A stretch of 64,000 nt of DNA from Blasia pusilla. Its lineage: Eukaryota. The notes beneath the pieces are model-generated. The model made no database searches. It was not told the origin of the DNA and worked only from the letters and a program-made list of their open reading frames with translations. This document shows, piece by piece, positions 17,991-64,000 of this stretch. How positions within the stretch are numbered: the first letter of the stretch is position 1; the number at the start of each line of letters is the position of its first letter. The stretch is taken from NCBI GenBank assembly GCA_050084515.1, contig CM114271.1, positions 5,084,001 to 5,148,000 on the forward strand, given 5' to 3'. A program made the position numbers and the translations under genes.

Positions 17991-18078
17991 GGAGTCATAT
18001 GTGTGGTTATAAATTTTTTAATTGAAAACTACATGCATAAGATGTTTGACTTTCATAGTCATGAGAATAACTCAAATG

Positions 18079-19764
18079 TGTCGTGCGCATACACATCGCT
18101 ACACATCATACATGGTTGTCACCAAACACACACACAAACACGTACAATCCCATGTTAACTCATGGCATCCAAACAACGAGACAAGAAGTACCAAAATATC
18201 TCGAATTAAAGTAAGATCCGATCTCTCTCTACACAATCTCACACCATAGCTCTCAAAGGTGTGCACTCTCTCTCATGTCAAACCAAACCCACTCTCCTAA
18301 TGAGAGGCTTGGGTTACACTCACAAGGCAAGCGACCATAGCTCTGCCCCCTCATGCCAAGAGGTTCAATAAAGAGAGAATGAGCTCTCAAGCTCTCTGTC
18401 TGCGCATACATATCGCTACACAACATACATCGCTGGTCACATCTACACCACACAACATTGATCTTCCCCACACATGTACAAAAATCAACTCATACATATA
18501 CATGGAGATCACAAAAAAAAAGAGTAGTAAATACGGCACACCCGGCCTAAAACTCCACTCCTCAATCTACATCGACATATCGAGCCTCGTCCACCTTGTG
18601 CTATCAAGGAATCCGGACGCTAGCACCCTAGTCCTATCTCACACACATACAAGGGAGGTGCTCCAACGGCCCAACATGAGAAAGATGGCTTAGGAAAGCC
18701 ATCTTCCTCTCTTATATAGGGTTGGGAAGAGCCAAAAGGCTCTTCCCCTAAAAATAGCCCTCCCCTTGGTAACCTGCACGCACAAGTTACCAGGGGCGGG
18801 TGACCTGGTCAACAAGTCACCCGGCTGTAAAAGACCTCAACATGAAAGTTGACAGAAACGACGTTCTTGACACAATCAACCTATCCTCAACCTCATCCGA
18901 CACCGTGGGACAAAGTTACACTCAAGATAGTCCGCTGGCTCCTACGCCCTATCCACGATAGATCTCGGCTTATCGGCTACTCAGATGTGACATCTCTCTC
19001 CTTGGGATATATATACCCCTCCCCTCTCCCAAGCTCTCTCAATGGCAACCTATTCTCCCAAGTCACCTCCTTGGCTCTTCACATGATGTAGGAGGTCAAG
19101 GGTCACTTACCAAAAATAGAAAGACGATCATATACTCAAAATGGTACTTACCTAAAATAATAAGTTTCTCAATATGGCTCCAAATGAGCCAAAACGAATG
19201 GGAAACCTGCTCTCTCAGGTTTCCCGGGGCCTCAGCAGGTCATCCTTGACCTCCTAGCATGTCCTCCACTACTCTTGAAGACGCTCTACTAGATCTCACC
19301 GATCTATCCTAAAGGACGTGACAACTGTCGTGCGCATACACATCGCTACACAACATACATCGTTGTCACTGAACACACACACAAACACGCACAATCCCAT
19401 GCTAACTCATGGCATCCAAACAACGAGACAAGAAGTACCAAAATATCTCCAATCGGCCCTCTACCTGGTGGTTAGGTCCCTCTAACTCCAGATAGCCATC
19501 TATCCCTACCTACCATGACATATATCTCTCAGACTCTAAGAGCAAGAAGGCCGGGTGCTCGTGTGGCTCCATCGTTAGTCGCCTTCTTTTCATCCATGTC
19601 AGAGAAAAAGTCGGGATCGAATCCTCAATATGGCTCGAAATGAGCCAAAACGAAGGGAAACCTGCTCTCTCAGGTTTCCCGGGGCCTCAATAGGTCATCC
19701 TGTCCTCCACTACTCTTGAAGACGCTCTATTAGATCTGACCGATCTATCCTAAAGGACGTGACA
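18079..19764 (-). mobile_element. Internally deleted split-repeat retroelement (subfamily 1): partial A1-3'UTR-B1-A2-B2
   Basis: On the minus strand: A1 5' part 19625-19764, 3'UTR 19454-19624, B1 19326-19453, 2-bp spacer, A2 about 18208-19323, B2 18079 to about 18207. Perfect 4-bp TSD aatg at 18075-18078 and 19765-19768. Confidence 0.88.
18397..18992 (-). mobile_element. Solo A+B terminal unit, subfamily 2, nested in A2 of the 18079-19764 element
   Basis: TG...CA ends, perfect 4-bp TSD tctc. One terminus is homologous to the B end (tgcgcatac..atcgctacacaacatacatcg). Confidence 0.85.
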
Positions 19765-33800: not shown

Positions 33801-35788
33801 GGACTCTGATGGATGGAAGGGACTACACGGACTGATGTAACTTGTGCCTTATGCAATGGTAAAGGGAAGAAAAGGGTATTAATATGCGGAGATTGCCATC
33901 TTCGATTTCCAAAGTCACCGTTGCCTACCTATCTTCTTGAAGATATAGTGTATAGATAAGATACAAATGCAAGTTACACGAGCACATTATCTTCGTTTAT
34001 ACTAGTGAAATGGACTGCAAAGTACTTGTAATGAACATTGTGAATGACACATTTAAAATTGGCTAAGAGTTTAAAACATGAGAAGGTGCATTATGGATTG
34101 AATTAATGTGTTGTAAGTGTGAGCAAAAGGATCATTAGTTGAATAAATCATACATATATCAACAATGTATACCTTTGAATTGTTGTACGCAGGTGGCAAG
34201 CATGGATTTGAGTAAAAATATTCTCACTATGAAAGTAATAGGTGGTAAATAGCAAAAAGAAAAATTGCATATGAGTGAGATTGGAAATGATTTTATGTGT
34301 ACATGTGCAGTGCAAAAAGTAAGTTGGATAAGGTAAAGAGCAACATGAAATTTTATGACGGAGTTTGAAATGAAACATTCAATGTAAATAAATCAAAGAA
34401 AATAAAAGTGGGTGGTGATCACAATGATTGTAAAAGTATGCTCACAAAGACACTTTTGCACCCAAGTTTGAGTGTTGTTGGTAGAGACCTTATGAAAATA
34501 TGCCCAAAAAAATCCTGGGAGAAACAAAAATTGCTAGAAGTTATAGGAAGACAACTTGAAAATCTTCAAGTGTACGTGAAGTAGGTAAAGAGAGCATTAT
34601 ATGACCCTTTCCTAATCAAATACATTAGATGTTACTCCATCTTCTATGGTAATCACTTCACCCTCTACAGTCACGAAACATGGATTGAATCAAATCTAAC
34701 TGAAGTGACAACTTTTGGACTATTTTCTAGTAGAGGATGTATGTGCTTTTCAAAATAAAAAATCTGATCTCTTACCTGTTTTAATTGCTTCTTAATTCAC
34801 TCAACTCGGAATACTAATCCTGGTTATCCTCTAGTGCAAAATTAACTTCTGTAAAGCTTGGAACAATTAAACAAGAATTGGTTAGATGTTTAAAGTTTGA
34901 TTTGAAACAAGACTGTAAAGACAGTAGAACATACATCATGAATTGCATGAAAAAGTATGCAATACAATGGTAAACACATTGGATTCTTGTGTTTCATTGA
35001 GTGGATATATCAAACACTAAATTATGAAATGCAATAAGAAAGAGAATTTAAGAAAAAATGAATATATAATTTAGTATGTGGAAAAGGTAAACTTAAAATA
35101 TTTGATAAAATATTGAATGATGTGCACAGAGGTATAAATGAGTGAAAATTATACACTTGTATTAAGTATATGTATTGTAGTATGAGAGTTCGAAAAAATA
35201 ATAGATATATATATATATAAGAATATATGCCTAAGAAAGCATATATGAACTGAAAAACCATCATAGTCATGTCTATAACTAAAAGGAATGCTTTGAAAAT
35301 CTATGGAAAGCATATGGGAATATAAAAAGTGTCCAAAAGAGAGCCAAAAGTGGGAAGTAACGTTGTGAAAATGTTGAAGGCATATGCCAAAAGGAAGAGC
35401 ATCATGGTGACGTCCACAACTGCACAAAAACCATGTGATGATCAAGAACATACAACAATATCAAAACTCAACATGGAGAGCATGGAAAAAATTGAACATA
35501 TTTAAAATGGAATAGCTAATGACATAATATCTATACTTGGATTTGGAAAGAGTCCTAAATGAACTAGGCACACTTTCGTTTGTTTGGTGACCCGATAAGA
35601 AGGTTTGGCTCAAAGCTATCCTTTGGGACAATGGGTATGGCTAGAACTTCTTCTAGGCTTTGTGAAGTTTGAGGGAAGGAAGAGGTAGTAGCATGTGTAT
35701 TGCCATTTCTAGGAGTTGATGAGACAACGATAACATCCTCAAAATCAAGAAACAAGGAGGTTATTGGTGATTTTCTAGGTCAATAGGA

Positions 35789-36304
35789 TGTCACGTCTTT
35801 TAGGATAGATCGGTGAGATCTAGTAGAGCGCCTTCGTGAGTAGTGGAGGACAGGCTTAGTAGGTCGAGGATGACCTGATGAGGCCCCGAGAAACCTGAGA
35901 GAGCAGGTTTTCCCTTCGATTCGGCTCATTTGGAGCCATGTTGAAGAACTTACTATTTTAGATAAGTACCATTTTGAGTATATGATCGAATTATTATTTT
36001 TGGTAAGTGGCCCTTGACCTCCTACATCAGGTCAAGAGCCAAGGTATGACTTGGGAGAATAGGTTACCATGGAGAGAGCTTAGAGAGGGGAGGGGTATAC
36101 CTCAAGGAAAGAGAGTTTGAGAGCTCATTCTTTCTTTGTTGAACCTCTTGGCATGAGGCGTCGGAGATATGGTCTTGCTTGCCTTGTGTGTGTAACCAAA
36201 GCCTCTCATTAGGAGAGTGGGTTTGGTTTGACATTGAGAGAGACATGTGAGAGTGCACACATGTGAGAACTATGGTGTTGTGAGAGAGATTGGATCTTAC
36301 GTTA
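35789..36304 (+). repeat. Terminal repeat A1
   Basis: Direct repeat of 45571-46089. Followed by a GA-rich tract, not by B or a TGG primer-binding site. Confidence 0.9.
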
Positions 36305-38189
36305 CAAAGAGAGAAAAAGAGAAAGAGAGAGTGAGAGAGTGAGAGAGTGAGAGAGCTTCATGGGGGAGCTCACTTGTCACTCGTTTTTTTCCAGTTTAGG
36401 GACTGTTTTCCCCATTCAACGGCTCATGGGAGTGCTCACCGGAGCAAGGGCTGATTTGATTGTTCTTTGCATTTGTCGATTTTTCGTGTGGAAGAGTGGT
36501 GCGCAGAAGCGCTCCCCAATTTTTGATAGGGATTGATTATGGGGGCGGGTTGCCCCATGCCGGTGCTCTCGAGAGCACCATGTAGCTTTCTGATTTGTAT
36601 TTTTACAGGTTTTACATTTTGGTTGGGAGAAATTAGCGCGGAAGGGCTGCCAAATTTTGTGTAGGAGAAAGAGACATTGGGCTTTACGACAATCCCCATC
36701 AGTTTTTACTGGAATGTCCAATTCCAAATATTTTTTTGACGCTGTTGTAGATCGTGAATCTATGCACGTTGTGCAAAAACAGTGCACAATTTGGAGTTGT
36801 GAGTAAAAAGTTATGGTCAATCTTGAAAAATTGCCATTGCTAGGTGATTTTTAGGGTTAAATTGTTCAAACCCTAAACTAGTTGCCACGCTGGCGGCGGC
36901 TGTCACCTTCATAGTCATCGTCACCGGTAAATGGTCAACATCACCATCAACGGTCTATCATCATCATCAACGGTCAACCATCACCGTCAATGGTCCACCG
37001 TCCGCTGGCCACCGTTGGCCGTTGCTGTTGCCCAGCGTTGCTCAAAGCCGCATTCGGCCGTTGTCCACCCTTTGGTTGCCATTGCCGCCATTACAGAGTG
37101 GAGGGTCTTCCACGACGTTTGTTGATTCTCTGACTTGCGTCGCCACCATGTACTTTGTTTTGGCCGCCACCGTCATCGAAGTTTTGTCGTCAACCAGTGA
37201 CGGTAGATGACCTCCAATTATGGTTTTTGAGTTTTTATTTCATGCTGCTATGTTGTGATTGGTAGCTGCTCCACGATGATCGAGTACCGTGCTATGACGC
37301 TCGTAGCTGCAATGCGCCGCCGATTGCCGCGCCGTGCCGTCTTGATCCCGGAGTCACACGTCATTGGGGACCAGAGTGTGGGTTTATTGTTGATTAAGGA
37401 GGGTATGGCGCCAAGTGCCACATCCCACCATCGGGGGCCGTGCCATTTGTAGCCATTCTGTGCCGCCTGCAATGCCGCACTGTTCCGCTGGAACTGCACT
37501 GACTACTGAGGAGTTTTGAGCAGCATTAGTACGAGAGGAGTATGACTTGCTGATTGGAGGATTTGTCTCCACGATCGAGTTGGGGTTGAGATTTGCAGTT
37601 GTTGAGGAGCGACATCGACATGTGTTCAGGTTACCCATTCTGGTCCTTTACCCTGCACGCGTGAGGGATTCTGGGATTTGGGTAGTTAATTTGGGGATAT
37701 TGGGTTGTGTGGATGCTGAGAGCATCATTTATGTATGTGGTTTAGGGCACATAGACATGTGTGGGATGTCCGGAGTTGAGGGTAGGTTGTCGATGAGATG
37801 ATAGCCTGGTCGATTTTCCGCACCACGCCGCTTGTTGCCGCACGTTACACGTCTCGGGGAGGGAGAGTGTAGATGAGTGCTCCATGTTTGGGATGAGTGA
37901 TTGAAGGATTAATCGCGAGGTTGAGAGTGATCGTGTGAGAGGGGCACGAGGGCCATCACGGCGTCCTTTCAGGATTTTGAGAGGCGAGGTAGTGGACTTG
38001 AGAGTAGCTCTGGAGGGTTTACCTGGAGTGGTGCGAGGTTTTGAGGGTCTCCATATGAGAGATCACCTCGATCTCCTTCTATATCATCTTCAAATGAGGG
38101 GGAGCGTGTAGGGGAGTTTGTGAGCACATCGCCACACATTGTGACCGGTCCTACCAGTTGGGCGTACGAGATGGACGATCGGGGTAGAG

Positions 38190-39612
38190 GACCGCGTAGG
38201 TTTTCAAGTGTAGTAGGCACGATTGAGTTGCACAATTTCATAGCAGAGTTTAGGAGTTGATGCGACTCCCAGCGAGCCAAGAACTCTAGAGAGGTCAACC
38301 CGTTTACAACATGGAACGGTATGTTCTAGCATTTAGAGGGGGCGCCCATGGACGATTACCATGAGTTCTCTTAGAGATATGCACGTGAGATCGAGGCGCG
38401 GAGGCTCTACTATGACCCACATTATATGTCATGGACACAACCGTTCTCAGATGAAGAGGAGGAGTTAGTAGAGGCTACTTCCTCTTCCACTAGTGACATT
38501 TTAGGAGGGGTCACTCGCACGGGAGCAGTTGCACCGTCTAGTCGGGTTCGTCCTAGGTTCAACCCTCTAGTTGAGTTCTTTGCTGAGTTGAGGGCAAGCT
38601 ACCAGGGGTATGGACGGAGAAGTTGCAGAGCATCCACGACTTCCAAAGGCGCCCGGGTGAGAGCTTGCGTGAGGCTTACACTCGCTTGCGCCGATTGATC
38701 AACGTCACTCAAGGGGTGACAGAGGCTCAGACTATCCAGTCATGGTACGCGATGATGGACCGGACCCTGCGCACACGGGTGCGGGAGGGGGTGCTTCTTA
38801 TGAACAACTCCCCTATGTTGAGAGATGTTTTTAGGACCGCCAAGAACATTGAGCGCAACATGGCGGAGGAGAGCGTAGCCACCATGGGTTCTGGGCGAGA
38901 GCTGTCACGATTTCCTGCACTACCTGTGCAGCAACGTGGACTACGAGATAGGTCGAGTGTGGCACCACGAGCTCAAGGAGGATACCGGGGGGCCGTGCCA
39001 CAGAGACCTACGCCTTCATATGCGGCTCAACAACAACCGCCTACTATTACTTGTTGGTCATGTGGTGAAGCCCATCATCAGCGTGATTGCACTCGTCAGG
39101 GTCATGGATATGTGCCTCAATATGGAGGAGGAGATGGTGCTGCACTAGGAGGTTATCAATGTGACTATTGTCAGAGGTATGGTCATACACGCGCCAGGTG
39201 TTTCAGTTTACATCTTGAGTTACGTCCGGACCGAGGGCCAGAGAGGGCACCAGAGCGAGTAGTCAGTCCGGGTGGGCCTAGAGAGCGTGCACCAGGTTGT
39301 CCCGTTGGGGGACGAGGAGCTGGAGTTGCCCCACATGATGGTGGAGTTGCCCATGGAGGAGGTAGAGTACCACCACCTAGACGCGCTGAGGGAGACGTTG
39401 GATGTGAGGCTGGGATGGCTGCTCAGATATCGCAGCTACAAGAGCAGATTTGCCGTTATGGCATTGAGGTTACCGATGCCGGATCCGTGGCATTGACATC
39501 ATATGGAGCAGCCAGAGATCTGCAAGATTGTGGTTGGATGTGCGGGGTTGCCCATATGGAGGCAACCGTAGTTGTGGCGCGTGGAGCAGCCGTAGAGTTG
39601 GATCCACAATGA
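38190..39612 (+). pseudogene. gag: gag with two CCHC zinc knuckles
   Basis: FQRRPGESLREAYTRLRRL (retrotransposon gag), CWSCGEAHHQRDC, CDYCQRYGHTRARC. In-frame stops upstream. Confidence 0.85.
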
Positions 39613-40079
39613 GGGAAAGCCAAGAAACAGACTAGGCTTCCTCAGTCTTTCATGTTGTCCGAGGCAATGAGGACCCCATCGATGGGTCCTGATTAGAGTT
39701 TGTGGAGAGTTGGTGATGTTGTTGGTATGCATGCACGGAGGGCGATGGGAGAAGCGAGTGCAACGACTCCTATTGTTGATGTTCAGAAGGGGCATGTGTC
39801 GAGCATGTTTTTGGAGGCGGCCACCATTGTGTACCACCCTCCTTTATTTTTTGCTTCCGATGTGATGACATTGGGGGATACGCCCGCGGAGGCTTTTCGG
39901 CTGGCCGCTACTCTACGTGGGCGTGGAGTTGGAGTTCTTGCATCACATTCAAAGATGATTGCAGAGGAGTTATGGACATGCCCTTGGAGCGGATGCTCAG
40001 GCCGTCCACGTCAGATTTATGGCAAGCTGCGGCTGCTAGGATGGCGGAGATGCCCGCTAGACCCGCAATAGAGCATGCC

Positions 40080-40500
40080 ATGGCTTCTCCTGGTGTTGTG
40101 TTGTTGGATAACCGAGGAGAGGTCTTCCACTTGGTGAGTCCCGGAGGTAGAGCTTTTAGTCCGCAACGCGTCTTGTTGGATTCAAGAGCACAACCCTTGA
40201 TGTTGGTGATAACGTCATTCAGAGGATTGGGCTTGATGAGAGCCGATGTGGAGCGTTTTCCATTCCGGATATAGACATCCTTGGGTGGAGCGAGTACCAC
40301 ACAGTATATCACCCGACAAGAGGTCGTGGTGAGGATTCGCCCGGGACATCCTACAGATGAGTCCGTGGCGCGAGCCAAGGCAATAGTGATTGATGCACGA
40401 GTCCTACGACGTCTTGGTTGGTGGAGCAGTGTTATACCCGATGGGGTTTTCCCTGGATTACTGGGAGGAGTCAGCATCCTACAGACTAGGATGGTAGTCA
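40080..40500 (+). pseudogene. Retropepsin-like aspartic protease
   Basis: RVLLDSRAQPLML (D-S-G motif with G>R), in the expected position after gag. Confidence 0.7.
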
Positions 40501-40889
40501 AATGATGGGCGCCTTAGCTCATTACCCGTTCGATTCACAGGTGCAGTGATCGAGCGACGGCCAAGAGAGGTGGCGACCTTAGCAGCATTTAGCAGTGCCA
40601 TCACGTTGCCTAGTGATTTGATTGAGGGACATGTCCATGCAGACGATACTCCCGTTCCTAAAATTTCTATGGAGAGGAGTGTTATGGTAGCCGCATCATT
40701 CCGTGGAGGAGAGGTGCCGTTGTGGGGCTCGACTGAGGAGCTTCGACGATTGGCAGATGAGCACGTGCATATCACGTGGAGCGAGGCGTTTGCACCGGAG
40801 CGTGACGGGTCTGAGGAACCGAGGTAGCAGGGAGTGCTACGATGACACCCTTGGATACCACACCCATTGTGTGGTGTATCCCGGAGGAG

Positions 40890-41850
40890 GGTATTTGAGT
40901 GTTAGATCTCTTTGGAGGGATTAGCACCGGGTTAGCTGATGTTTTGCAGGCAGGAGTGCGAGTGTAGCAGTACCTGTAAGTGGATAGTGATGATGTTGCG
41001 AGGCCCATCTCACTACGACATGTGGCGCAGTTATGCCTATGTTTTCCCGACTTATTGTCTCCGTCCGTGGTATAGGAATACCAGAGTTCCCTATCGAGGG
41101 ATATTTCGTTGCTGGGGGCGCAGGACTTAGACCGGTTAGGCACCATTGATTTGGTCATTGCCGGTTGGCCATGTCAAGGCCAATCGAGTGCTGGACGAGG
41201 CAGTGGGTTGGCTAACACTTGGTCCATGTTGTTTTGGGAGATGTTGAGGGTCTTACGACAGTTGCAGGAGCACCAGTCTCGTTCTCTAGCCTACATTCTG
41301 GAGAATGTGCCAATCTTAGGAGACTCGAGGTCACGGGTGGTGACGAGTGCTCATCACGTGCGTGCCTGGATCGGCCCAACAGTGTTCTTGGATGCGGTGA
41401 GTGTAGGTTCTAGAGCCCATCGCCCGCATCTATGGTGGACCAACTTGGTGCCCCATGCGGTGTTACGAAGGGCGTATGCGAGAGTGGAGCGCCCCTCCCG
41501 TTTGTTAGTGGATTCCATTCTGGATCCAGGTCGTCGCTCACACGCAATGAGGCAAGATGATCGACCACCATTGATTTTGGTCAACAGGGTAGGCAAGCCG
41601 CGGGCAACCTTTCCCACGTTTGTGAGTTTTCCGCTTCCTATGTATACAAGGAGGCCGGTCCTGGCTTGGTTTGGGATGACCAAGTTCAGAGGTTGGTGGA
41701 GCCCAACGTCGACGAGAGAGAGCAGGCGATGGGATTTCCCACACGAGTGACGGAAATACCGTCAGTATTAGAGGTGTCACGACGCCATGTCTTGGGTCAG
41801 GCGATGGACCTGAACTAATTGACATGGATCTTCAGCTTGGGACTGGCTTA
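40890..41850 (+). pseudogene. DNMT3-like C5 DNA cytosine methyltransferase domain inside pol
   Basis: Motif I VLDLFGGISTGL (40899). Motif IV DLVIAGWPCQG (catalytic Cys 41172). Motif VI LENV (41301). Motif VIII region FLDAVSVGSRAHRPHLWWTNL. After a 1-nt frameshift at about 41633, motifs IX/X EREQAMGFP..SRRHVLGQAMD. Several in-frame stops. Confidence 0.93.
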
Positions 41851-42202
41851 GCAACGTCGGATGAGATCTCGACAGATCACAGCGGTTGCGTTGGTGAGCC
41901 CCATGCCTATCGAGACGATGGAGGCAGTGGCTAGGGGCAAGACCTGAGGAGATCTACACACCATGGGAGATCTAGAGAGACACCCTTGGACTTCTTGGGA
42001 TGTTTTGTAGGTACGCCAGGAGATGATAGCCACAACATCGAGCGTGGTTCCGGGCACTGCACATGGAGGAGATCAGAGTTTGCAGTTGCCTGTAGAAGAG
42101 CCGCCGAGTGTTGTTGTTCGAGACGGGGTTGCACCATAGCAACCACCGATACCTGCGTCGGAGAGTCCTACCGTAGTCACGATGGAGACTTGAGATCCAG
42201 AT

Positions 42203-43630
42203 ATGGGCCCTAAGTTGACAGGAGGAGAGCAGCGCCGAATACATTTGTTCCTCACGAGTTATAGGAGCTACTTTGTGTTTAGCATGGAGGATTTGGGTAT
42301 GCTAAAGGGACCAGGGATCCGCATTGAGTTGTCGAGTGATACGCCGATCTTCCAAAGACCCTACAGGTACAGTGATATGGAGAGGGCTCTGATTGAGAGT
42401 AGGAGCCAGGACTTGGTTGGAGCACGACTAGTGGAGATGTCGCATGGGGAGTATGCATCTGCCACTGTCATGCTCGCCAAGAAGGATGTACATGGCAACT
42501 GGACGGATAGGCGGATGTGTGGAGATTATCGACCTATCAATCGGCAGATAAAGTTCGATAGGTATGCCATGCCCACCGCTGAGGAGATCTTTGATGCAAT
42601 TGGTCACGCAAAGGTCTTTAGTTCATTCGATTTGCAAGCCGGATACCATCAACTGCCTATCAGATTGGAGGACAGGCAGAAGACGGCATTTTGGGGCATC
42701 GATCCTCATGGGAAGGATTATTTGTACCAGTGGCAGTTCTTACCATTTGGGTTAAAGAACGTCCCGGCTGAGTTTCACAGGGTCATGGATAGGATCTTCG
42801 CTGGTATGGATTTTGCTAGGTGTTATATTGATGATATTGTATTCTTTAGCGCCACGATTGAGGAGCATGAGCGACATCTAGAGGAGGTGTTTTGATGATT
42901 GCAATTACATGGGTTGAAGCTACATCCAAGCAAGTGCAAGTTCTTCTACGGCCATATTGAGTACTTGGGTCATACGATATACCCAGAGGGCTTTGGTGTT
43001 TAGGAGAAGAAGGTAAAGGCTATCTCACGCATTCCACGCCCTATAGATGTGAGCCGTGTTCGCGCATTCATGGGATTGCAAACTTTTATCAAACGGTACG
43101 TCAAGGGATTCAGTTTGATTGCGAAGCCGTTGACCTTGCTAACCAAGGTGGATCACGAGTGGCACCGGGGGGATGAGTAGGAGCGAGCATTTCAATTGCT
43201 CAAGGACAAGTTGACGTGTGGGCCCATCTTGAGGAGATCGATCAAGGGTCATCCTTTCCAGTTGCACACAGATTGGAGTATGTTGGGGCTTGGAGCGGTG
43301 CTCACCCAGATGATGATGAGCGTAGAGAGTTCGTGGTGGCTTACGCTAGCCGCTCGAACAACACTGCAGAGGCAAAATACAGCTCGTATGAGGGTGAGTG
43401 CTTGGCTGCAGGGTGGGCTGTCTCACATTTCAGGTGTTACTTATTGGGCAACCCCTTTACCATCATCACTGATCATCAACCACTGAAGTGGTTGATGGAG
43501 TCCAACAAGCTTACAGGGAAGCTTGCGAGATGGGCTCTGTTGTTGCAAGAGTATGATTTTCAGGTGGTACAGAGATCTAGGACGCTCAACCAAGATGCAG
43601 ATGGGTTGAGTCGTAACCCATGCCCGAGTC
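42203..43630 (+). pseudogene. pol: Ty3/gypsy reverse transcriptase and RNase H
   Basis: RMCGDYRPIN, FDLQAGYHQ, LPFGLKN, YIDD (about 42824). RNase H: LHTDWS..LGAVL, EGECLA, TDHQPL, DADGLSR. Stops and frameshifts present. Confidence 0.95.
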
Positions 43631-43971
43631 AGCGAGATGCGATTAGAGCTCGATGGCATGGAGAGAGTGATGAGGAGTCCGTGCCAGGATGGCACGCGTC
43701 AGCCTATTTAGGCATGTTGGCTATGGAGAGCCAGAGTGTGGAGACTTCGATGGCGAGGTCTAGTGGAGAGTCCTTGGATCCCGAGGCCAGTGAGGAGACC
43801 ACAGGTGGTCGAGATATTCATGATGACGGAGTAGTCTTGGAGTACCTTCGTACTGGTAGCGTTGCAAGCACCGTGGGTGCTAGAGAGCGGGATCGGATCC
43901 TACAACGGGCTAGACGGTTCCGGTAGGAGGGAACACATGTTCTGAGGGTTTGGGAGGATGGTAGAGTACGT

Positions 43972-45060
43972 GTGGTGCCGCATCCTTTGCAGAGAGCACG
44001 AATAGTGCAGCATGCCCACGAGGAGTTGGGTCACTTTGGGGTGAAGCGGACGTACAACTTGCTCCAGATTCAGTATTGGTGGCGAGGCATGCAGATTGAC
44101 GTTCAACAGTTTGTTGCTAGGTGCATGGTGTGTGATGGGGTCCGAGCATTGTTCAATGCTTCGACTCCACAATTGCATCCATTACCGATCATGGGCTTAG
44201 GTTATAGATGGAGTTTGGATTTCGCACGACCTTTGAACTTTGACGGAGCATCACAGTCGTTATATGTTGGTGATGGTCGAGCACTTCTCGAAGTGGATCG
44301 AGTTGGTTGCATTGCCTGAAAAAGCGAGTGAGGGAGTAGCTTATGCCTTCCTTGACAGAGTGCTGAGTCATTATGGCGCACCGGCTGAGGTGTTGACAGA
44401 CAAGGGTACCGAGTTTCACGGTGAGTTCCAGGCCTTGTGTGATCAGGCGCTGATCGGCCACCGCACGACTTCGCGAGATCATCCTGAGGCGGATGGATTA
44501 GCGGAGAGAGTTGTGCAGACGATGAAGAGGGGTTTACGCAAGTAAGGCTTGCAAAGAGGTCACCTAGGAGATTGGGACCTCCAGTTGCCATGGTTGGCGA
44601 TGGGATACAGATTTAGCAGGCATGCATCCTTAGCGTTTTTTTCACCTTACTTGCTACTTTATGGCCGAGAGCTAGATTTACTTGCGGCCATTGGTCGAGA
44701 TGCAGGTGAGGTGCTGGACCTTGATGACCCAGATGTATGGATGCGAGCATGTTCTCATAGGGCTGAGTTGTTTTGGAGAGTGATGCCCATGGCGTTTGAG
44801 AACTTGGCGATTGCGCAACATCGGGATACGTTGAGGTATGCGACTATTCGGGGTGGTGGTTATCGACCAAATATCCGGAGGTTTCATCAGGGAGATTATA
44901 TCTACTTGCAGCAGACGGCATCGACGACGTTGGATGTGACTGCAGGGCGCACTATCCTGAGACTCCGTGACGTTTTGCCATCTGGTGTTGTCTTGCTAGA
45001 GGGACGCGATGGTATGGTATGGAAGGACCATGTGCATAATTGTGCGCCATGTCACCTTCC
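43972..45060 (+). pseudogene. DDE (rve) integrase
   Basis: HHCC finger HEELGH..CMVC. Catalytic SLDF, LTDKGTEF, GLAERVVQTMK. Confidence 0.93.
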
Positions 45061-45109
45061 TAACATTGATGGTACAGTAGATCCGAGCTTAGAAGAAGTT
45101 CTTGCAGGC

Positions 45110-45256
45110 TGGCATTATATGTTGTGTGGTTCTGCCCGTGGTACGACCACGATACTAATATGTGATGGATGTTTGAGAGGTTGGCATATGGCATGTGTGA
45201 CGCCATCTCTTAGTAGGGTTCTTTGGGGACGATGGATGTGTCCCAGATGTATATAG
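45110..45256 (+). pseudogene. PHD finger at the integrase C-terminus
   Basis: YMLCGS..ILICDGCLRGWHMACVTPSLSRVLWGRWMCPRC matches C4HC3 PHD spacing (first Cys>Tyr). In frame with the integrase and ends at the pol stop. Confidence 0.88.
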
Positions 45257-45440
45257 AGGAGATACTAGGTAGGTTTCAATTTCGACTTTTTTTGTGACGT
45301 GGATGATAGGAAGGCGACTAACGATGGGGCCATATGAGCACCCGACCTTTTGCTCTTAGTGTTCTAGAGATGTATGTCATGGTAGGTAGGGATAGATGGC
45401 TATCTGGAGTTAGAGGGACCTAACCACCAACTAGGGGGCG

Positions 45441-46215
45441 ATTGGAGATATTTTAATACTTCTTGTCTCGTTGTTTGGATGCCATGAGTTAGCATGGGAT
45501 CGTGGGTGTTTGTATGTGTGTTCGGTGACAACGATGTATGTTGTGTAGCAATGTGTATGCGCACGACAACTGTCACATTTTTTAGGATAGATCGGTAAGA
45601 TCTAGTAGAGCGTCTTTGTGAGTAGTGGAGGACATGCTCAGTAGGTCGAGGATGACTTGTTGAGGCCCCGGGAAACTTGAGAGATTAGGTTTTTCCCTTT
45701 GTTTCGGCTCATTTGGAGCCATGTTGAAGAACTTACTATTTTAGGTAAGTACTATTTTGAATATGTGATCGACTTTTTATTTTTGGTAATTGGCCCTTGA
45801 CCTCCTACATCAGGTCAAGAGCCAATGAGGTGACTTGGGAGAATAGGTTACCATGGAGAGAGCTTGGGAGAGGGGAGGGATATACCTCAAGGAGAGAGAG
45901 CTTGAGAGCTCATTCTCTCTTTGTTGAACCTCTTGGCATGAGGCGTCGGAGATATGGTCTTGCTTGCCTTGTGTGTGTAACCCAAGCCTCTCATTAGGAG
46001 AGTGGGTTTGGTTTGACATTGAGAGAGACATGTGAGAGTGCACACATGTGAGAACTATGATGTTGTAAGAGAGATTGGATCTTACTTTATTGGAGATATT
46101 TTAGTACTTCTTGTCTCGTTGTTTGGATGCCATGAGTTAGCATGGGATCGTGCGTGTTTGTGTGTGTGTTCGGTGATAGCGATGGTATTATGTAGCGATA
46201 TATATGCGCACGACA
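45441..46215 (+). repeat. 3' block B1-(ac)-A2-B2
   Basis: B1 45441-45568 repeats as B2 46089-46215. Junction gcacgaCA-ac-TGtcac at 45561-45576. Confidence 0.9.
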
Positions 46216-46588
46216 AGGGAGAGGAACAAAATCAAGCAACTTCCCATCATCTTGTGTTAGTTTAATATGGTCAAGCGAATGAGTTGCTTTAACATATGAT
46301 AAGTCAAGGAGCATGGAAATTGGCAAATGCATTTCATGCCTATGTTTTTGGAGTTGATCCAAACATATTCCACCAAAAATAAGGTCCGATAGCCTTGTGG
46401 CATCTTTCCTTGTTAGGGACGATTCTTTGAAATCTACATTTATGAAGTGCAAGGCTTCTTTCTCGATTCCCGCAACAAAAATGGATGAAATAATTTGTGG
46501 TTAGATGAAGCTCTTATTTAAGTGAAAGTATAAATGCGAGAGCACAATAGTTTCAATGTAAAAGAGGATACACTGACCTAGTGCTCGT

Positions 46589-47224
46589 TGTCACATATTT
46601 TAGGATAGATCGACGAGATCTAGTAGAGAGCCTTTGCAAGTAGTGGAGGACAACCTCAAGAGGTTTAGGATGACCTACTTTTGCCACGTATAACCTGAGC
46701 AGGTTTCCCCTTCGTTTCGACTCATTTGGAGCCAAATAGAAAAAACTTACTATTTTGAGTAAGTTTCCACATTGAGTAAAGTTGACTTTAAATTTTTAGA
46801 AGTGACCCGCTATAATAGGTCAAGAGCCAAGGAGGTGACTTGCGAGCATAGATTACCGTGGAGAGAGCTTGGGAGAGGGAAGGGGATATACCTCCAAGAG
46901 AGAGAAAGAGAGTTTGAGAGCTCATTCTCTCTTTATTGAACCTCTTCGCATGAGACGGCGGAGCTATGGTCCTCCTTGCCGTGTGTGTGTAACCCAAGCC
47001 TCTCATTAGGAGAGTGGTTTTTTTTCACTTGAGATAGAGAGAGATCGAGTATGCACATTTATGAGACCTTATTGATGGAGAGATCCACTTGATTTAATTA
47101 GAGATATTTTGGTACTTCTCCTCTCGTTATGTGGATTCCAAGAGTTAGCATGTGATCGTGTGTGTTTGTATGTGAATTCGGTCACAACGATGTATGTTGT
47201 GTAGCGATGTGTATGCACACGACA
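46589..47224 (+). mobile_element. Solo A+B terminal unit, subfamily 1 (diverged)
   Basis: tgtcac...acgaca, colinear with 45571-46215. TSD not clearly preserved (tcgt/tgat). Confidence 0.8.
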
Positions 47225-47269: not shown

Positions 47270-48774
47270 TGTTGTGCGCATACACATCGCCACACAACCC
47301 ACATCGCTGGTCACATCTACACACCACACAACATCGATCTTCCCCAACATATAGGTAGATCTACACATAAAAAAAAAATAACACTCACGCATATACACCG
47401 AGATCCCATAATCGTCCCCAAAAATTTGAGTAGTATAAACGGCTCACCCGGCCTAAAACTCCACTCATGAATCTACATCAACATATCAAACCACATCCAC
47501 CCTCCGCTATGAGAGAATCGAATGCTAGCACCCTAACTCCTACACACCCATACACGTATATGCAAGAGAGGTGCTCCTAAGGCTCAACATGAGAAAGATG
47601 GCTTGAGAAAGCCATCCCTCTCACTCTTATATCCTTGGAAAGAGCCAAAAGGCTCTTCTCCCAAAAATAGTTGTGGGTTCGAATCCGACTCCTGCCAAAA
47701 AAGGTCATAAATGGGTGAGAAAAAATGGAGAAGAACTTTCACCTTCATGGAAACTCAGTTCAATCACTCCGCCATCAGAGTGCGGATGAATGCGGAATGT
47801 GTTTACCCAATGATCTATTAAATATAAAACCATGCTTGCCGTGACGATCCACAGGCTCTAAAATAGGGATGTTATGGGGGCCAGTAGATTAGCTTAGGCA
47901 ATATAACCAATGTTTCCAATGAAAATAGAAACTTTCGGCGAGCTCCCGCGCTTCAAATGCAGGGCCCGAGCACTGTCAGACAAAAAAAGGGTCCCAAACT
48001 TTGTTTTGTCGGACATCACAAAACCAAAAAATTGTCCGACAAAACATAGGGCTGAGGACTTTTTTTCCAATGATTCACAACGACTTCTAGCCCTTGTGTT
48101 GGGGTGACGTCTCCCAAATAAAATCCTTGGTTTAGGCCGGCAGGATGGTTGACCCCAAATGCAGGGGTAGACCGTGCTCTCCACGGCCATGGCTGTCGCC
48201 TCCACCACGATCTTTATGTTCTATAGGTTGAGACTTAATGTAGCTTGTTTTATGAACCATCAATTCTAAGTTTAGAGTAGCTATTAGGATTTTTTGAAAC
48301 CGATCCTAGCTTATAGATTTTATTCAAAAAATATGCTTGTATGACTTTTGGTTATTACACTCCCAATGGTAACCTGTGTGCAATATTACCGGGTGACCGT
48401 TGACTTGGTGAACGGGTCACCTGACAGACTAAAACCAAAATAAGGAAATCGCCACAAACAATGTTCTTGATGCAACAGAACTTTTTCCAACCTCATCCGA
48501 CATCTTGAGACGAAGTTACATCCAAACAGCTCGATGACTCTCTATACCGTCGATGTGATAGAACTCTATCTACGTCAAAATAAGATATGACAATTATGGT
48601 GCGCATACACATTGCTACGCTACCCACATCGCTGGTCACATCTACACACCTCACAACACCCATCTTCCCCAACATATGGGTAGATCCACACATAAACGAA
48701 ATGCACTCATGCATATACACTAAGACCCCACAACCGCCCCCCTAGTTGGTAGTTGGGTGCCCCTAACTCCATAT
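47270..48774 (-). mobile_element. 3' end (3'UTR-B1-A2-B2) of a subfamily-2 split-repeat element
   Basis: B2 47270 to about 47410; A2 to 48592 with a ~690-bp insert; spacer at; B1 48595 to about 48733. Then ccgcccccctagttggt, matching the 3'UTR motif upstream of B1 at about 45425-45440. Confidence 0.8.
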
Positions 48775-50660
48775 TTTCATGATTTTTAGGATAGATCGGA
48801 GAGATCTAGTAGAGCGCCTTCAAAGATATTGGAGAATAGCTCAAGAGGTCGAGGATGACCTTCTGAGGCCACGGGTAACCTGAGAGAGTAGGTTTCCTAA
48901 GTTTCTCCAAATAGAGAAACTTACTATTTTGAGTAAGTTTCTATTTGGAGTATAGTTGACTTTATACTTTTGGAAGTGGCATTTGACCCGCTACAGGAGG
49001 TCAAGAGGCAAGGAGGTGACATGCGAGCATAAGTTATCGAGGAGAGAGCTTGGGAGAGGGAAGGGGGTATATCTCGAAGAGAGAGAGCTTGAGAGATTTA
49101 CAAAGAGAGAATAAGAGAGTGAGAAAGTTTCAATGGAGGACCTCACTGGTCACTTGCTATTGGTGCAGGTTGGGAATTGTGGTCCCCGTTCAATGGCTCA
49201 TGGGAGTGCTCAGTGGAGCAAGGGTGCCTTTGGATGTGCTGTGCGATTGCCGATTTTTTGTGTGGAAGAGTGGCGCGCGGAAGCGCTGCCCAATTTTTTA
49301 TAAGGATTGAGTATGGGGCGGGTTGCTCCATTCTAGTGCTCTTGGGAGCACAATGTAGCTTTCTGGTTTTTTTGTTTACAAGTTTGAAGTTTTTGTTGGG
49401 AGAAATCAGCGTGGAAGCGCTGCCAAATTTTGTGTAGGAGAAGAGACGTGGGCTACACGACAATCCCCGTCAGTTTTTATTGGAAGGTTGAATGAAGAAT
49501 CCAATTAAATGAGGTCATACATCGGAAAGTTGTGCACATTGTGGAAGAAACAATATGCAATTTTGAGTTTGGAGCAGAAAGTTGTGGTTGATTGAGCAAG
49601 CTGCCATAGCCACCATGCTACCGTGTGAGTGAAATTTCCAATATTCCTTGGTAATTTCTTGAGTGGTAGAGAAAAATAAAAAAAATCATTGTTACCTTGG
49701 TGGATAGGACAAGGGCACCGGCCCTTGGAAGTAGAAGTTGAGTGGAAAAATTATTTGAGGAGAGTTGACCCACCAATTATGGAGAATGAGTCAATTTGTA
49801 AATTTGTCAGAAGGGGGCAGTCAAGTTAAGCAATTTTAGTTGAGACCCAGTTTTCCCGCGGTGTATTTTAGTAAGAAGACAAAATTTGGTGGGGGGGGGG
49901 GAGCCGCATCCTCTTCCGGGGATGCCGCATTGCCACTGTGAGTGGGGTTGCGCTGCCGTTGTCAACTCTAAACCCTACGTCACTACCTTTAAGCTTCCGC
50001 CTTTGCTGTTCCGTCTAAGCCAGCTGCTGTCAACGTCGGACCAGTTGTTGTAGCCGCTTGACTCTTGTTACTTATTTTAATAAATGGGGCTATTTTGTGG
50101 TCCGACTGAGCCTCTGTCTCCCAACACCCTTCACCATTCCGGAGGGCAAGTGACCTTTAAGGATTGGTGGGGTCCGAGTATTCATCATGCTTTGCTATGT
50201 CGTGATTTGTAGCCGCTCATTGACAATCAAGTACTTTGCCGTGATGCCCGTAGCCGCAATGCGTCGCCAATTTTTGGGCCATGCCGCTCGTGGCCGCACT
50301 GTCTCGATCACGGAGCCGCATCATCATTGTGGAGCAGATTATGTTTTTTTGATTGAGGAGGATATGCCGTTGAGTGCCGCACCCCATTTCTAAGTGCCAT
50401 GTCGTCTGTAGCCGTTACGTGCCGCACCGTACCGCTGGACCTGCACCGCACATCGAGCAGATTTGAGCATCATCAATACCAGAGGAGTACGACTTGCTGC
50501 TTGGAGGAGTAGTCTTCACAACCGAGTTGGGGTCAAAGTTTTTCAGTTGCTGAGGAGCGACATCGACACTTGTTGTTAGGTTATCCATTTTGGTCATTTG
50601 CCCCATACGTGTTAGGGATTTTTGGGTATTGGGAAGTTATTTTGGATAGTCTCACAAGAT
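48775..50660 (+). mobile_element. 5' fragment (partly deleted A1 plus leader) of a subfamily-1 element
   Basis: Homologous to 35789 to about 37700. A is followed directly by the ttacaaagagaga leader. Confidence 0.8.
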
Positions 50661-53480: not shown

Positions 53481-53697
53481 CGTATCGACTCGCGATGACT
53501 CGCCATGTGAAACGCCCCTTGGTATCTGATTAGCTACTGCGCGGGAGAGAGAGGAATGGAGTCACGAAATGAGAAACCGGAAATGAGCGATTTCTGCCCT
53601 ATTTATACTTTTCTAGCCGTTGGGCTGACCGTTGGGTCCCGTCGTCCTTTCGACGGCGACGTGCCGGAGGTTACGGAAGTCCGGACGTGAAAAATGG

Positions 53698-54310
53698 CAA
53701 CCAGTCGGAGTCCGACAGGTTGCACGCCTCCGCCGTCCTGGGTACATCGCCATGTGCGCGAGCAACCCGTCGGTCTCCGACGGGTTGAGCGCCTCCGCCG
53801 TCTTCGGACAAGAACGCGAGGTACCCGCGCAACCCGTCGGAGACCGACATGTTGTGGGCCTCCGCCGTCTTTGGACAAGAACGGGACGTACCCGCGCAAT
53901 CCGTCTGAGACCGTTGGGTTGCACGCTTCCCTTGTCAAGGGTTAACAACGCGGGCTTCCCGCGCAACTCGTCGGAGTCCGGCAGGTTGCACGCTTCCTTC
54001 ATGTAAGCACCACAAGGCGAGGCCCTTGCGCAACCCGTCGGAGGGCGACGGGTTGCACGCCTCGCCGTCTTTGGGCAAATAGGTGCGGCACCCGCGGAAC
54101 TCGTCTGGAACAGACGGTTTGCACGCCTCCAGCATCTTTGGGCAAGAAGGAGCGGTATCCGTGCAACTCGTTGGAGAGCGATGGGTTGCCAGCTTCGACC
54201 ATGTTTGCGTTTGAAGGTAAGGCGAAGCGGGCAACCCGTCCGAAGCCGACGGGTTGCAGGCTTCGCTTAGCTTGGGTTAATTGTTGAGTAACCAGGACTC
54301 CGACGGGTTC
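53698..54310. repeat. ~67-bp minisatellite with a 25-bp palindromic core CAACCCGTCGG-NNN-CCGACGGGTTG
   Basis: Cores start at 53698, 53763, 53830, 53897, 53964, 54031, 54097, 54164 and 54232. Confidence 0.9.
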
Positions 54311-61620: not shown

Positions 61621-61778
61621 TCTCCTTTTTCAATACAAAATTATTATGTATAATCTCCATTCTCTCACGATAGGTATCACAAATGGAATTGCCGAGGCAA
61701 TCACTTCTTCGTAACATCGGATCTTGAAATTCCTAACTATAAAATCCCTATAAAATATTTTACGCTTGTACACGAGGA

Positions 61779-64000
61779 TATCACGTCTTTTAGGATAGAT
61801 CGTGGGATCTAATAGAGCGCCTTCATGAGTAGTGGAGGACACGCCCAGTAGGTCGAGGGTGACTCTTTGAGGCTCTTGAAACCCGAGATAGCGAGGTTTC
61901 CCCTTCGTTTCGGCTCATTTGGAGCCATTTTGAGGAACTTACTATTTTAGGTAAGTACCATTTTGAGTATATGATCGACTTAATATTTTTGGTAAGTGGC
62001 CCTTGACCTCCTACATCAGGTCAAGAGCCAAGGAGGTGACTTGGGAGAATAGGTTACCATGGAGAGAGCTTGGGAGAGGAGAGGGGTATACCTCAAGGAG
62101 AGAGAGCTTGAGAGCTCATTCTCTCTTTGTTGAACCTCTTGGCATGAGGCACGGAGCTATGGTACCTTGCCTTGTGAGTGTAACCCAAGCCTCTCATTAG
62201 GAGAGTGGGTTTGGTTTGACATGAGAGAGAGTGCACACCTTTGAGAGCTATGGTGTGAGATGGTGGAGAGAGAGATTGGATCTTACTTTACAAAGAGAGA
62301 ATGAGAGAATGAGAGAGTGAGAGAGCTTCATGGGGGAGCTCACTGGTCACTCCCTGTTTTTGCAGGTTGGGACCGTGTTCCCCGTTCAGCGGCTCATGGG
62401 AGTGCTCACCGGAGCAAGGGCTGCTTTCATTACTCTTTGCATTTGCCGATTTTTCGTTTGGAAGAGTGGCGCGCGGAAGCGCTGCCCAATTTCTGATAGG
62501 GATTGAGTATGAGGGCAGGTTGCCCCATGCTGGTGCTCTCGGGAGCACCATGTAGCTTGCTGATATGTATTTTTACAGATGTTACATTTTCGTTGGGAGA
62601 AATCAGCGCGGGAGCGCTGCGGAATTTTGTGTAGGAGAAAGAGACATTGGGCTTTACGACAATCCCTGTCAGGTTTTACTGAAATGTCCAATTCTAAATA
62701 TTTTTTGATGGTAGCGTAGATCGTGAAGCTGTGCACGCTGTGCAACAAACAATACACAATTTGGAGTTGCGAGCAAAACGTTATGGGCAATCTTGTAAAG
62801 CTGCCATTGCTAGGTGATTTTTAGGGTTAAATCGTGCAAACCCTAAATCAGCCGCCACACCGGCGGCGGCCGTCGCCATCATAGTCACCGTCAACGGTCG
62901 ATGGTCAACCATCACCGTCAATGGTCAACCGTCACAATCAACGGTCAACCGTCACCATCATCGGTCGGCCGTCACCATCAACGGTCAACCGTCACTGTCA
63001 AAGGTCCACCATCCATTGTCCACCCTTTGGGTGCCATTGCCGCCATTACGGAGTGGAGGGTCTTCCATGACATTCGTTGATTCTTTGACTTGCGTCGCCA
63101 CCACATACTTTGTTTTGGCCGCCACCGTCATCGCAGTTTCTTCATCAACCAGTGAAGGCAGATGACCTCTGGTTATGGTGTTTGAGTTTTGATTTCATGC
63201 TTCTATGTTGTGATTGGTAGCCGCTCGCGACGATCGAGTATCGTGCCGTGACGCCCGTAGCCGCAACACGCCGCCGATTGCCACGCCGTGCCGCTCGTGG
63301 CCGCACCGCACCATCTCGATCGCGGAGCCGCACCGTCATTGTGGAGCGAGTGTGGGATTATTATTGATTGAGGAGGGTATGCGCCGAGTGCCGCATCCCA
63401 CCATCGAGGGCCGCGTCTTTGTTCGTCGAGCCGCCTGCGTCGCCGCAACGCCGCACCGTTCGCCGGGACCGCACTTTGTCTATCGAGGAGTTTTGAGCGC
63501 ATCGATGGAGGAGGAGTATGACTTGCTGATTGGAGGAGTTGTCTCCACGATCGAGTTGGGGTCGAGATTTGCGATTCTTGCCGAGGAGCGACATCGACAT
63601 GTGTTCAGTTACCCATTCGGTCCTTTACCCTACACGTGTGAGGGATTCGGGATTTATTTGGGGATATTGGGTGTGTGGATCGAGAGCATCATTTATGTAT
63701 GTGGTTTAGGGGACATAGACTTGTGTGGGATGTCCGGAGTTGAGGGTAGGTTGTCGATGAGATGATAGCCTGGTCGATTTGCCGCACCACGCCGCGTGTT
63801 ACCGCACGTTACACGTCTCGGGGAGAGAGAGTGTAGATCGAGTGCCGCATGTTTGGGATGAGTGATTGAGGGATTCCTCACGAGGTTGAGTGATCGGGTG
63901 AGAGGGGCACGAGGGTCATCACGAGTCTATTCGGGACTTTGAGAGGCGAGGTGGTGAACCCGAGAGTAGCTCTAGAGGTTTTACGCGGATTGGCGCGAGG
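61779..64000 (+). mobile_element. 5' end (A1 61779 to about 62291, plus leader) of another subfamily-1 element, running off the window
   Basis: Colinear with 35789 to about 38040. A1 is again followed directly by the leader, without B. Confidence 0.9.

Follow-up and report, generated by a model that had tools for sequence, protein, structure and literature searches.

DIRS-type repeats together with Gypsy domains are stated for KnitGypsy-Dnmt3 of Klebsormidium nitens in the legend to Fig. 4c of de Mendoza et al. 2018 (PMC5890265). The integrases of prototype foamy virus (PFV; PMC1180852) and human immunodeficiency virus type 1 (HIV-1; PMC1905944) are reported to cleave the palindromic junction of two long terminal repeats (LTRs), and self-priming is described as documented for Tf1/Sushi elements and predicted for the plant (moss) Tcn1 clade (PMC6317226). 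Here we describe a degenerate Ty3/gypsy element in 64,000 nucleotides (nt) of Blasia pusilla DNA (assembly GCA_050084515.1, contig CM114271.1, positions 5,084,001 to 5,148,000, forward strand; this whole stretch is called the window). Its layout is A1-internal-B1-NN-A2-B2, with A and B standing for repeated segments and NN for a 2-nt spacer, and it has TG…CA termini and 4-bp target duplications. The place where B1 and A2 abut, called the join below, keeps a spacer of exactly 2 bp in all independent copies that could be scored and may be an attachment (att) site cut by integrase.

In element 1 (copy 1), the join lies at 45567-45572 (+) and consists of a right end …CGACA, 2 nt and a left end TGTCAC…; positions 45559-45580 (+) read GCGCACGACA-AC-TGTCACATTT, B1 (…GCGCACGACA) running to 45568, the spacer AC occupying 45569-45570 and A2 (TGTCAC) starting at 45571. 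Copy 2, on the minus strand, has the end of B1 at 19326, the spacer GT (the reverse complement of 19324-19325) and A2 from 19323. In copy 3, also on the minus strand, a B-like end …GCGCACCATA (…CCATA, the terminal CA being changed to TA) at 48595 is followed by AT (48593-48594) and then TGTCAT; BLAST similarity to copy 1 ends 11 nt beyond the join, and with B1 and B2 84% identical over 146 nt this is a true join of a third subfamily. A BLAST self-comparison of the window finds B (128 bp, end 45568) again at 46089-46215, 47097-47224, 19453-19326 and 18206-18079, and A (~516 bp, start 45571) again at 35789, 46589, 61778 and 19323, and in part at 19764 and 48775. Since it is defined by homology of its flanks, the join is far beyond chance.

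Relatives were found among proteins and in metagenomes. A search with the DNA methyltransferase (DNMT) fragment gave 41 proteins, of which the named ones are from Marchantia polymorpha, Calypogeia fissa and Sphagnum (42-68% identity), and several of these relatives join the methylase with reverse transcriptase (RT), RNase H, integrase and PHD. Metagenome contigs scanned with a four-protein alignment yielded 80 loci (32 were compared with themselves and all 80 were searched with B and A), and those that bear a join share 36-50% protein identity with the query. L009 (the same locus as L052) contains A1, B1-AT-A2, B2 and a TCTC duplication, L056 contains B1-GC-A2-B2, and L021 contains B1-GC-A2. 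The motif GACA-NN-TGTC has 23 hits in the 583,444 bases searched: eight are an unrelated coding motif, five are at other sites, and ten lie 0.28-2.3 kb downstream of pol (L001, L002, L009, L052, L035, L038, L045, L047, L048 and L059). L048 is the L047 locus and L052 the L009 locus, and each pair was counted once among the independent joins.

The spacer is 2 bp in 13/13 independent joins (three window copies and ten metagenome loci), and its letters are GC in eight, GT in two, AT in two and AC in one; the joins span at least four subfamilies with unrelated A sequences. The strict motif search fixes the spacer at 2 nt, hence we added a scan of lengths from 0 to 10 nt (ACA-N(0..10)-TGTC, over 64,874 nt downstream of pol at 36 loci), in which N=2 gave 14 hits and the other lengths 0-8 hits each with ~4 expected, so that length 2 alone is enriched. 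All six scorable joins defined by homology (three in the window, L009, L021 and L056) have exactly 2 bp; L016/L015, in which the join is deleted, fall outside this scoring. GACA-GC-TGTC is a 10-bp palindrome, which extends to 12 bp in L045 and L047 (TGACAGCTGTCA). Spacers other than GC all derive from it by G>A and/or C>T changes, and the ancestral site is therefore GACAGCTGTC; changes in this direction are expected at methylated CHG sites (CAG/CTG) in plant transposons. The first-pass annotation of this DNA had claimed a right end, 2 bp and a left end in three copies, which we confirm with all three placed, and the constant spacer length that its reading called for holds as well. It had also taken the spacers as transition derivatives of AT (palindromic CAATTG); the 13 joins point to GC (CAGCTG).

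Insertions end with the TG of A and the CA of B and have 4-bp target duplications. The duplication is perfect in four cases (element 2, CATT; L009, TCTC; L020, TGTG; the unit nested in element 2, GAGA) and matches at 3/4 positions in three (element 1, L053 and L075), and the solo unit at 46589 has no recognisable one. A1 and A2 are 96.9% identical within element 2 and 93.4% within element 1, closer than pairs drawn from different elements (78-92%), which is the pattern that repeats regenerated at transposition would show. The A2/B2 joint is alike within 1 nt in the three window copies, and differs in 3/3 L009-type copies (L009, +17 nt; L056, +7/-10 nt; L057, ~-2 nt). An exact B-GC-A beside an inexact A/B joint looks like the pattern expected of ligated complementary DNA (cDNA) tips.

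Besides the full layout, seven loci (L010, L012, L020, L026, L027, L053 and L075) have the form A-int-B (int, internal region), in which B is followed by unrelated sequence, and A-B units stand alone at 46589-47224 and, nested, at 18397-18992. No B was found upstream of the A that precedes the internal region in any of 12 copies. Standard LTR models (an LTR made of A+B, of A alone, or a giant int-U5 LTR) fail to give an A1 without B plus a B2 inside the target duplication. As an origin of the A-B units, splicing of the internal region was rejected because the boundaries have no GT…AG.

Predicted priming sites suggest where the cDNA tips lie. In the copy leaving the window, 62291-62305 (CAAAGAGAGAATGAG), directly after A, is the reverse complement of A positions 338-352 at 15/15 positions, and of the six A copies searched in the window, five keep the 338-352 site; in A4 it was not found. 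The L009-type family has another 11-mer directly after A (ACTCAAAGAAC), which is complementary to A 168-178 at 11/11 positions in L016 and L053 and at 10/11 in L075. Shuffle controls equalled the observed matches of these primer-binding sites (PBS) in 0/300, 0/300 and 2/300 trials. Judged from the sequence, complementarity after A is a probable signature of Tf1-type self-priming, which would place the end of U5 at the end of A. Priming by initiator methionine tRNA (tRNA-iMet) was rejected: the motif has no match in the element, and its one perfect match in the window, 51555-51566 (minus), belongs to another LTR element; no tRNA genes were detected in the window or in the 23 loci scanned. As a polypurine tract, the GA-rich stretch that follows A1 was considered and rejected: the L009-type family does not conserve it, and a self-primer site is a better fit for its first 15 nt.

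At the other end, a block ending in a G-run (…CCAACTAGGGGGG) stands directly before B1. A G-run of 4-8 G is found 12-200 nt upstream of the join at 10/10 loci and marks the start of B in the B-bearing families, and the 5' edge of B2 lies -4 to +11 nt from the end of the G-run in five A/B joint types. If the G-run is taken as the plus-strand primer, U3 would start at the first base of B, and with U5 ending at the end of A the canonical LTR would be B-GC-A. A ends with …CTTACTTTA or …CATTTTC and B starts with ATTGGAG… or CGAGTTG…, with no CA/TG at either; because the predicted tips (B start, A end) are not TG/CA, a cut at the internal palindrome seems required. At L021:3361-3876, the end of A that follows B1-GC-A2 runs straight into an inverted A[1-178], with the turning point at the 11-nt self-primer/PBS complement; this inverted A looks like a snap-back product at the priming site.

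As to class, the order of Pol domains in the window is RT - RNase H - integrase, as in Ty3/gypsy elements, and it is the same in relatives with long open reading frames (ORFs). These relatives encode protease-DNMT-RT-RNase H-integrase-PHD or RT-RNase H-(DNMT)-integrase-PHD; the DNMT has two placements in the clade, before RT (the window, L002 and P0035) or between RNase H and integrase (L035 and P0040). No tyrosine recombinase (Phage_integrase) was found at E<=5 in 20 ORFs of element 1 or at E<=0.001 in seven long ORFs of five relatives, and element 1 has no Pfam protease match. The DDE integrase that the first-pass annotation had assumed is encoded (Integrase_H2C2 and rve). The join is independent of the methylase, as the GC palindrome is present in L047, L038 and L059, which have no Pfam DNMT match. 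The outer ends are not identical LTRs, as the left unit is without B and a B stands before the right unit; with B-GC-A taken as the LTR, an integrated copy amounts to LTR-int-LTR in shifted form. DIRS-type split direct repeats (A1…B1-A2-B2) are present in window elements 1 and 2, the third-subfamily element, L009 and L056, and integration is accompanied by 4-bp duplications, where DIRS elements integrate without any. A C5 methyltransferase inside Pol and a DIRS-type layout with Gypsy domains, both marks of the KnitGypsy-Dnmt3 kind, are found. Jointly with the att-site explanation below, we give an even chance to the element belonging to a bryophyte-type lineage of Ty3/gypsy elements that carry DNMT and PHD, akin in kind to KnitGypsy-Dnmt3.

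Four read runs of the host species (two of them RNA; chosen by species label) were used, with indels of at least 10% as the readable class. The family is extremely abundant in DNA contigs of the species. Stranded RNA reads cover the sense strand without a gap from the internal region onward, across B1 and the join and into A2. RNA depth in the bin 45524-45587 is 139 and 262 in the two runs, and in B2 19 and 13; depth rises near 45716 and drops near 45972-46099, with noise. No indel of that class was seen at the join in 4/4 runs. In one RNA run, 54 reads have heterogeneous sequence before the start of A, i.e. left ends with their flanks. The only flagged pile-up of read starts is at window position 46095 (run X22), where 13 RNA-library molecules start 5-6 nt inside B, just past the G-run position; it could be plus-strand strong-stop material or noise.

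An att site is our best explanation of the join, at even odds: the B end …GACA-3' and the A start 5'-TGTCA… around the ancestral GC would form the palindrome that integrase cuts. Plus-strand synthesis would start at the G-run just before B and minus-strand synthesis at the Tf1-like self-primer site just after A, which would give a cDNA [B-GC-A]-internal-[B-GC-A] with tips (B start, A end) that are not TG/CA. Cleavage of the palindrome by the DDE integrase, after CA on each strand, would produce CA-3'OH ends with 2-nt overhangs; the geometry of the first-pass annotation, with 3'-recessed CA ends and 2-nt 5' overhangs, is retained here. Cuts in both LTRs of a linear or 1-LTR-circle cDNA would give A-int-B, a dead end because the 3' U3-R is missing. 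If the cDNA tips had first been joined at an A/B joint, in a 2-LTR circle or head-to-tail concatemer, a single cut would give A-int-B-GC-A-B, the sole replication-competent form because only this form keeps the whole 3' LTR; a circle or concatemer would be needed for this form only. Given that the insertion ends are internal to the LTR, cutting would take place at the palindrome, with integrase as the obvious candidate. The observations cover the anatomy, the conserved join and its transcription, the target duplications, the PBS complementarity, the place of the G-run and the variation of the A/B joint; where priming starts, that a cut is made, by which enzyme, and the circle or concatemer are inferred.

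The first-pass annotation had read the join as a DIRS-type circle junction; it is better read as an internal part of a true LTR (B-GC-A). The precursor proposed there, a circle with one B-A junction, gives A-int-B when cut, and not the observed A-int-B-NN-A-B. In its strictest version, our proposal states that the clade never integrates by its cDNA tips, that the att palindrome is cut in the manner of a restriction enzyme, and that replicating daughters come only from tip-joined cDNA while linear cDNA yields dead-end A-int-B; this version is tentative, and we would rather doubt it than not.

Several points weigh against the att-site proposal. The permuted form A-B-GC-A-int-B is seen at 0/12 left ends, vs ~7 copies of A-int-B-GC-A-B, and it should be as frequent as the full form because a single cut of a two-site circle would be random; fast collapse through the closely spaced long A repeats would explain its absence, which is ad hoc. 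Recombination (B1xB2 or A1xA2) within the full form can equally produce A-int-B and solo A-B, which are therefore no proof of direct products. PBS complementarity lacks significance in element 1 (237/300 shuffles equal it), L009 (243/300), L020 (233/300) and L011 (61/300), none was found after A in L047, and the G-run is short for a polypurine tract. RNA reads form no start pile-up near 45909, where transcription is predicted to begin; noisy depth and a family indel at 46019 that clips reads leave the position of the RNA 3' end uncertain; and the low depth of B2 may come from assignment of reads to B1. Seven distant loci defined by the motif were scored on the join alone, without A1 or B2, and metagenome contigs may be chimeric (L047/L048 looks so). 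The circle or concatemer topology is pure deduction, no circle, concatemer, cDNA end or cleavage having been observed.

The alternative that survives best, which we regard as unlikely, is that the join is never cut: as a DIRS-like splint, B1-NN-A2 would be an internal template that restores the outer ends, a linear A…B cDNA would be inserted by its tips, and A-int-B and solo A-B would arise later by recombination. A-coding-B-A-B is the layout of DIRS-type elements as given in PMC5890265. The closest similarity of A1 to A2 within an element (96.9% and 93.4%), as if the ends were regenerated in each cycle, would suit a splint, as would transcription of the join, and the absence of the permuted form (0/12) would need no extra assumption. 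On the other hand, the PBS-type complementarity lies exactly where A ends and the G-run exactly where B starts, which predicts tips at those places and not at TG/CA, and we know of no mechanism that halts synthesis exactly at the CA/TG of the join. Different A2/B2 joints in 3/3 L009-type copies are unexpected for template copying, and DIRS elements use a tyrosine recombinase without target duplication, in contrast to the DDE integrase and 4-bp duplications seen here.

An integrase att site is also to be weighed against an E-box: CAGCTG, being of the CANNTG type, could be a transcription-factor site in U3 that is not cut, with the ends trimmed otherwise. Any TG…CA abutment with 2 bp between gives CANNTG, and the site is upstream of the predicted transcription start; this explanation leaves aside both the base-exact match of the insertion ends to the halves of the site in every target-duplicated copy and the extension of the palindrome to 10-12 bp, and in old copies the site decays by C>T like the surrounding sequence, all of which makes it very unlikely. 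Least credible of all is a functionless structural accident inherited from one odd ancestor (an A-B unit inserted beside a full element, or unequal crossover), for although nested or adjacent copies are common in the window and two of its three copies are of one subfamily, the spacer is 2 bp vs the 4-bp target duplication, the exact join recurs in 13 independent copies of at least four subfamilies with relatives at 36-50% protein identity, A2 always matches the A1 of its own element, and the spacer-length scan is enriched at 2 only.

To our knowledge, textbook retroelements with a DDE integrase all insert by the tips of linear cDNA, and circles are held to be dead ends. The plant lineage described here is widespread, transcribed and very abundant, and combines predicted tips without integrase ends, insertion ends joined within the LTR, and a replicating form with a scar like that of ligated tips. 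If the att-site proposal is true, it would amount to a second route of retroelement integration, account for the DIRS-like repeats in Gypsy-type elements that have been noted but left unexplained in print, and offer a natural system for the long-debated cleavage of LTR-LTR palindromes by integrase; on the tip-joining version, end-joining would be obligatory in a retroelement life cycle and the old retroviral 'circle junction' model would be realised. The A/B joint and the counts of the forms are directly testable, so that a nonstandard integration route is open to test (mobilome, long reads). Software that finds LTRs will misannotate such elements.

Table 1. Positions of the element copies, their parts and the protein domains in the window (TD, target duplication)
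Feature	Position	Strand	Remarks
Element 1, left TD, AGGA	35785..35788	+	3/4 positions match AGGG at 46216-46219
Element 1, A1	35789..36304	+	516 bp, TGTCAC start; 93.4% identical to A2
Element 1, candidate self-primer site in A1	36124-36138	+	CTCATTCTTTCTTTG
Element 1, PBS position	36305..36319	+	directly after A1; CAAAGAGAGAAAAAG, degenerate
Element 1, internal region	36320..45416	+	broken reading frames
C5 DNA methylase	41076-41747	+	Pfam, PF00145, E=1e-10
RVT_1	42194-42892	+	Pfam
RT_RNaseH	43177-43923	+	Pfam
Integrase_H2C2	43927-44316	+	Pfam
rve	44237-44542	+	Pfam
PHD	44546-45253	+	Pfam
Conserved block GACCTAACCACCAACTAGGGGGCG	45417..45440	+	directly before B1, polypurine-like G-run at its end; same block in L009-type loci
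Element 1, B1	45441..45568	+	128 bp, end …CGACA; 91.3% identical to B2
Element 1, spacer AC	45569..45570	+	inside 45561-45576, noted in the first-pass annotation
Element 1, A2	45571..46089	+	TGTCAC start
Element 1, self-primer site in A2	45909-45923	+	CTCATTCTCTCTTTG
Element 1, B2	46089..46215	+	end …CGACA; A2/B2 joint 46089/46090
Element 1, right TD, AGGG	46216-46219	+	
Element 2	18079..19764	minus	internally deleted; A1/A2 96.9% identical
Element 2, A1[1-143]	19764-19622	minus	
Element 2, 3' untranslated region (UTR) + B1	19625-19326	minus	
Element 2, spacer GT	19325-19324	minus	
Element 2, A2	19323-18993 and 18400-18207	minus	
Element 2, B2	18206-18079	minus	
Element 2, TD	19765-19768 and 18075-18078		perfect, 4 bp, AATG (+ strand)
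Nested A-B unit, third subfamily	18397..18992	minus	596 bp, TGTCAC…GCAGACA; within element 2 A2; 4-bp TD TCTC (+ strand)
Third-subfamily element, 3' end	47270..48774	minus	upstream part cut off by the A4 copy starting at 48775
Third-subfamily element, G-run + B1	48741-48595	minus	
Third-subfamily element, spacer AT	48594-48593	minus	
Third-subfamily element, A2	48592-47420	minus	
Third-subfamily element, B2	47419-47270	minus	
Solo A-B unit	46589..47224	+	77% identical to A2-B2; same A/B joint position; no recognisable TD (TCGT vs TGAT)
Copy leaving the window	61778..64000	+	A 61778-62290, PBS 62291-62305, internal region; no B upstream of A or directly after
A4, diverged copy	48775..50645	+	~75% identical; A, PBS-like CAAAGAGAGAATAAG (49101-49115), start of internal region

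The deletion in element 2 (19622-19625) fuses position 143 of A to the 3' UTR, the two sides overlapping by ~4 bp. Both the PBS and the predicted transcription start are lost with it, so this copy cannot have been copied as it now stands by the proposed route. A diverged, much older member of the family at 9869-13913 (minus) has 62-71% nucleotide identity across DNMT, RT, RNase H and integrase and no detectable terminal repeats. The tRNA-iMet-type PBS motif at 51555-51566 (minus) is beside direct repeats (51622-52097 and 59100-59594, ~7.5 kb apart, 82-90% identical); together they resemble an ordinary LTR retrotransposon, which probably sits nested within the diverged copy from 48775. Tandem arrays are found at 4248-5273 (~5 copies of a 210-212 bp unit) and 53683-54148 (seven copies of a 67 bp unit, which is GC-rich and has an internal inverted repeat). 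Host gene fragments include a weak match to the PIH1 N-terminal domain at 27320-27574 (minus) and three BRX-domain exons at 28744-30505 (+), which identify the host as a plant.

Among the metagenome loci, L047/L048 (one locus in two samples) has a second internal region after the join and A2 that is 99.9% identical to the first, whereas its A copies share just 80% identity; either full elements truly stand here head to tail or the contig is an assembly chimera, and this apparent tandem was not used. L038 has at 11818 a second end-to-end motif (…CAATACA-AC-TGTCACGC…), 520 bp past the first join, which hints at several TG…CA units in tandem with 2 bp between each.

Compared with known systems, transposon circles of IS3/IS911 have abutted ends with a few bases between them and are substrates of a DDE enzyme; they belong to DNA transposons without reverse transcription, and the likeness to the join is a resemblance only. 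PAT, Ngaro and SymbioDIRS-Dnmt3 of the DIRS order share the A1-internal-B1-A2-B2 layout, with an internal B/A abutment that repeats the outer ends, and TOC1 of Chlamydomonas also has the split direct repeats of this order. The DIRS order has a tyrosine recombinase and no target duplication, whereas the window family has H2C2 and rve domains, TG…CA ends and 4-bp duplications. Tf1/Sushi/Tcn1, as described in PMC6317226, prime from a site that follows U5 and pairs with a stretch inside the LTR, which the candidate self-primer sites here (11 or 15 nt) resemble, and they likewise have no tRNA-type PBS; they have ordinary LTRs, tips that are the integration ends, and a chromodomain, unlike the PHD and DNMT of the window family, and kinship is not implied.

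KnitGypsy-Dnmt3, like the window element, has a Dnmt-type C5 methyltransferase inside a Gypsy-type Pol (PMC5890265). The two are likened by description; the host of the former is Klebsormidium nitens, whereas the protein matches of the window element are from liverworts and a moss, and some join-bearing relatives (L047, L038 and L059) have no DNMT match, unlike KnitGypsy-Dnmt3. The main text of PMC5890265 contains neither 'circular' nor 'target site' and gives no 2-bp palindromic join, duplications or priming sites. Literature searches found no 2-bp GC join, no conservation of it across subfamilies, no 4-bp duplications, no self-primer/G-run geometry and no inference of an LTR-internal att site, and the supplements of PMC5890265 may show more. 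For the DIRS-like/DDE hybrid that the first-pass annotation had proposed, the repeat layout and the DDE domains are borne out; in the sources cited, a DIRS-like layout with Gypsy domains (KnitGypsy-Dnmt3) and integrase cleavage of LTR-LTR palindromes are already known.

The 2-LTR junction of retroviruses is, like the join, a palindrome of abutted ends (U5 and U3 in retroviruses), and retroviral integrase is described as cutting it internally. It has 4 bp between CA and TG. The retroviral junction occurs only in unintegrated circles, whereas the join in the window is encoded inside the element, is transcribed and has 2 bp; and the joint of ligated tips in the window family would be A/B, unlike the U5/U3 junction of retroviruses.

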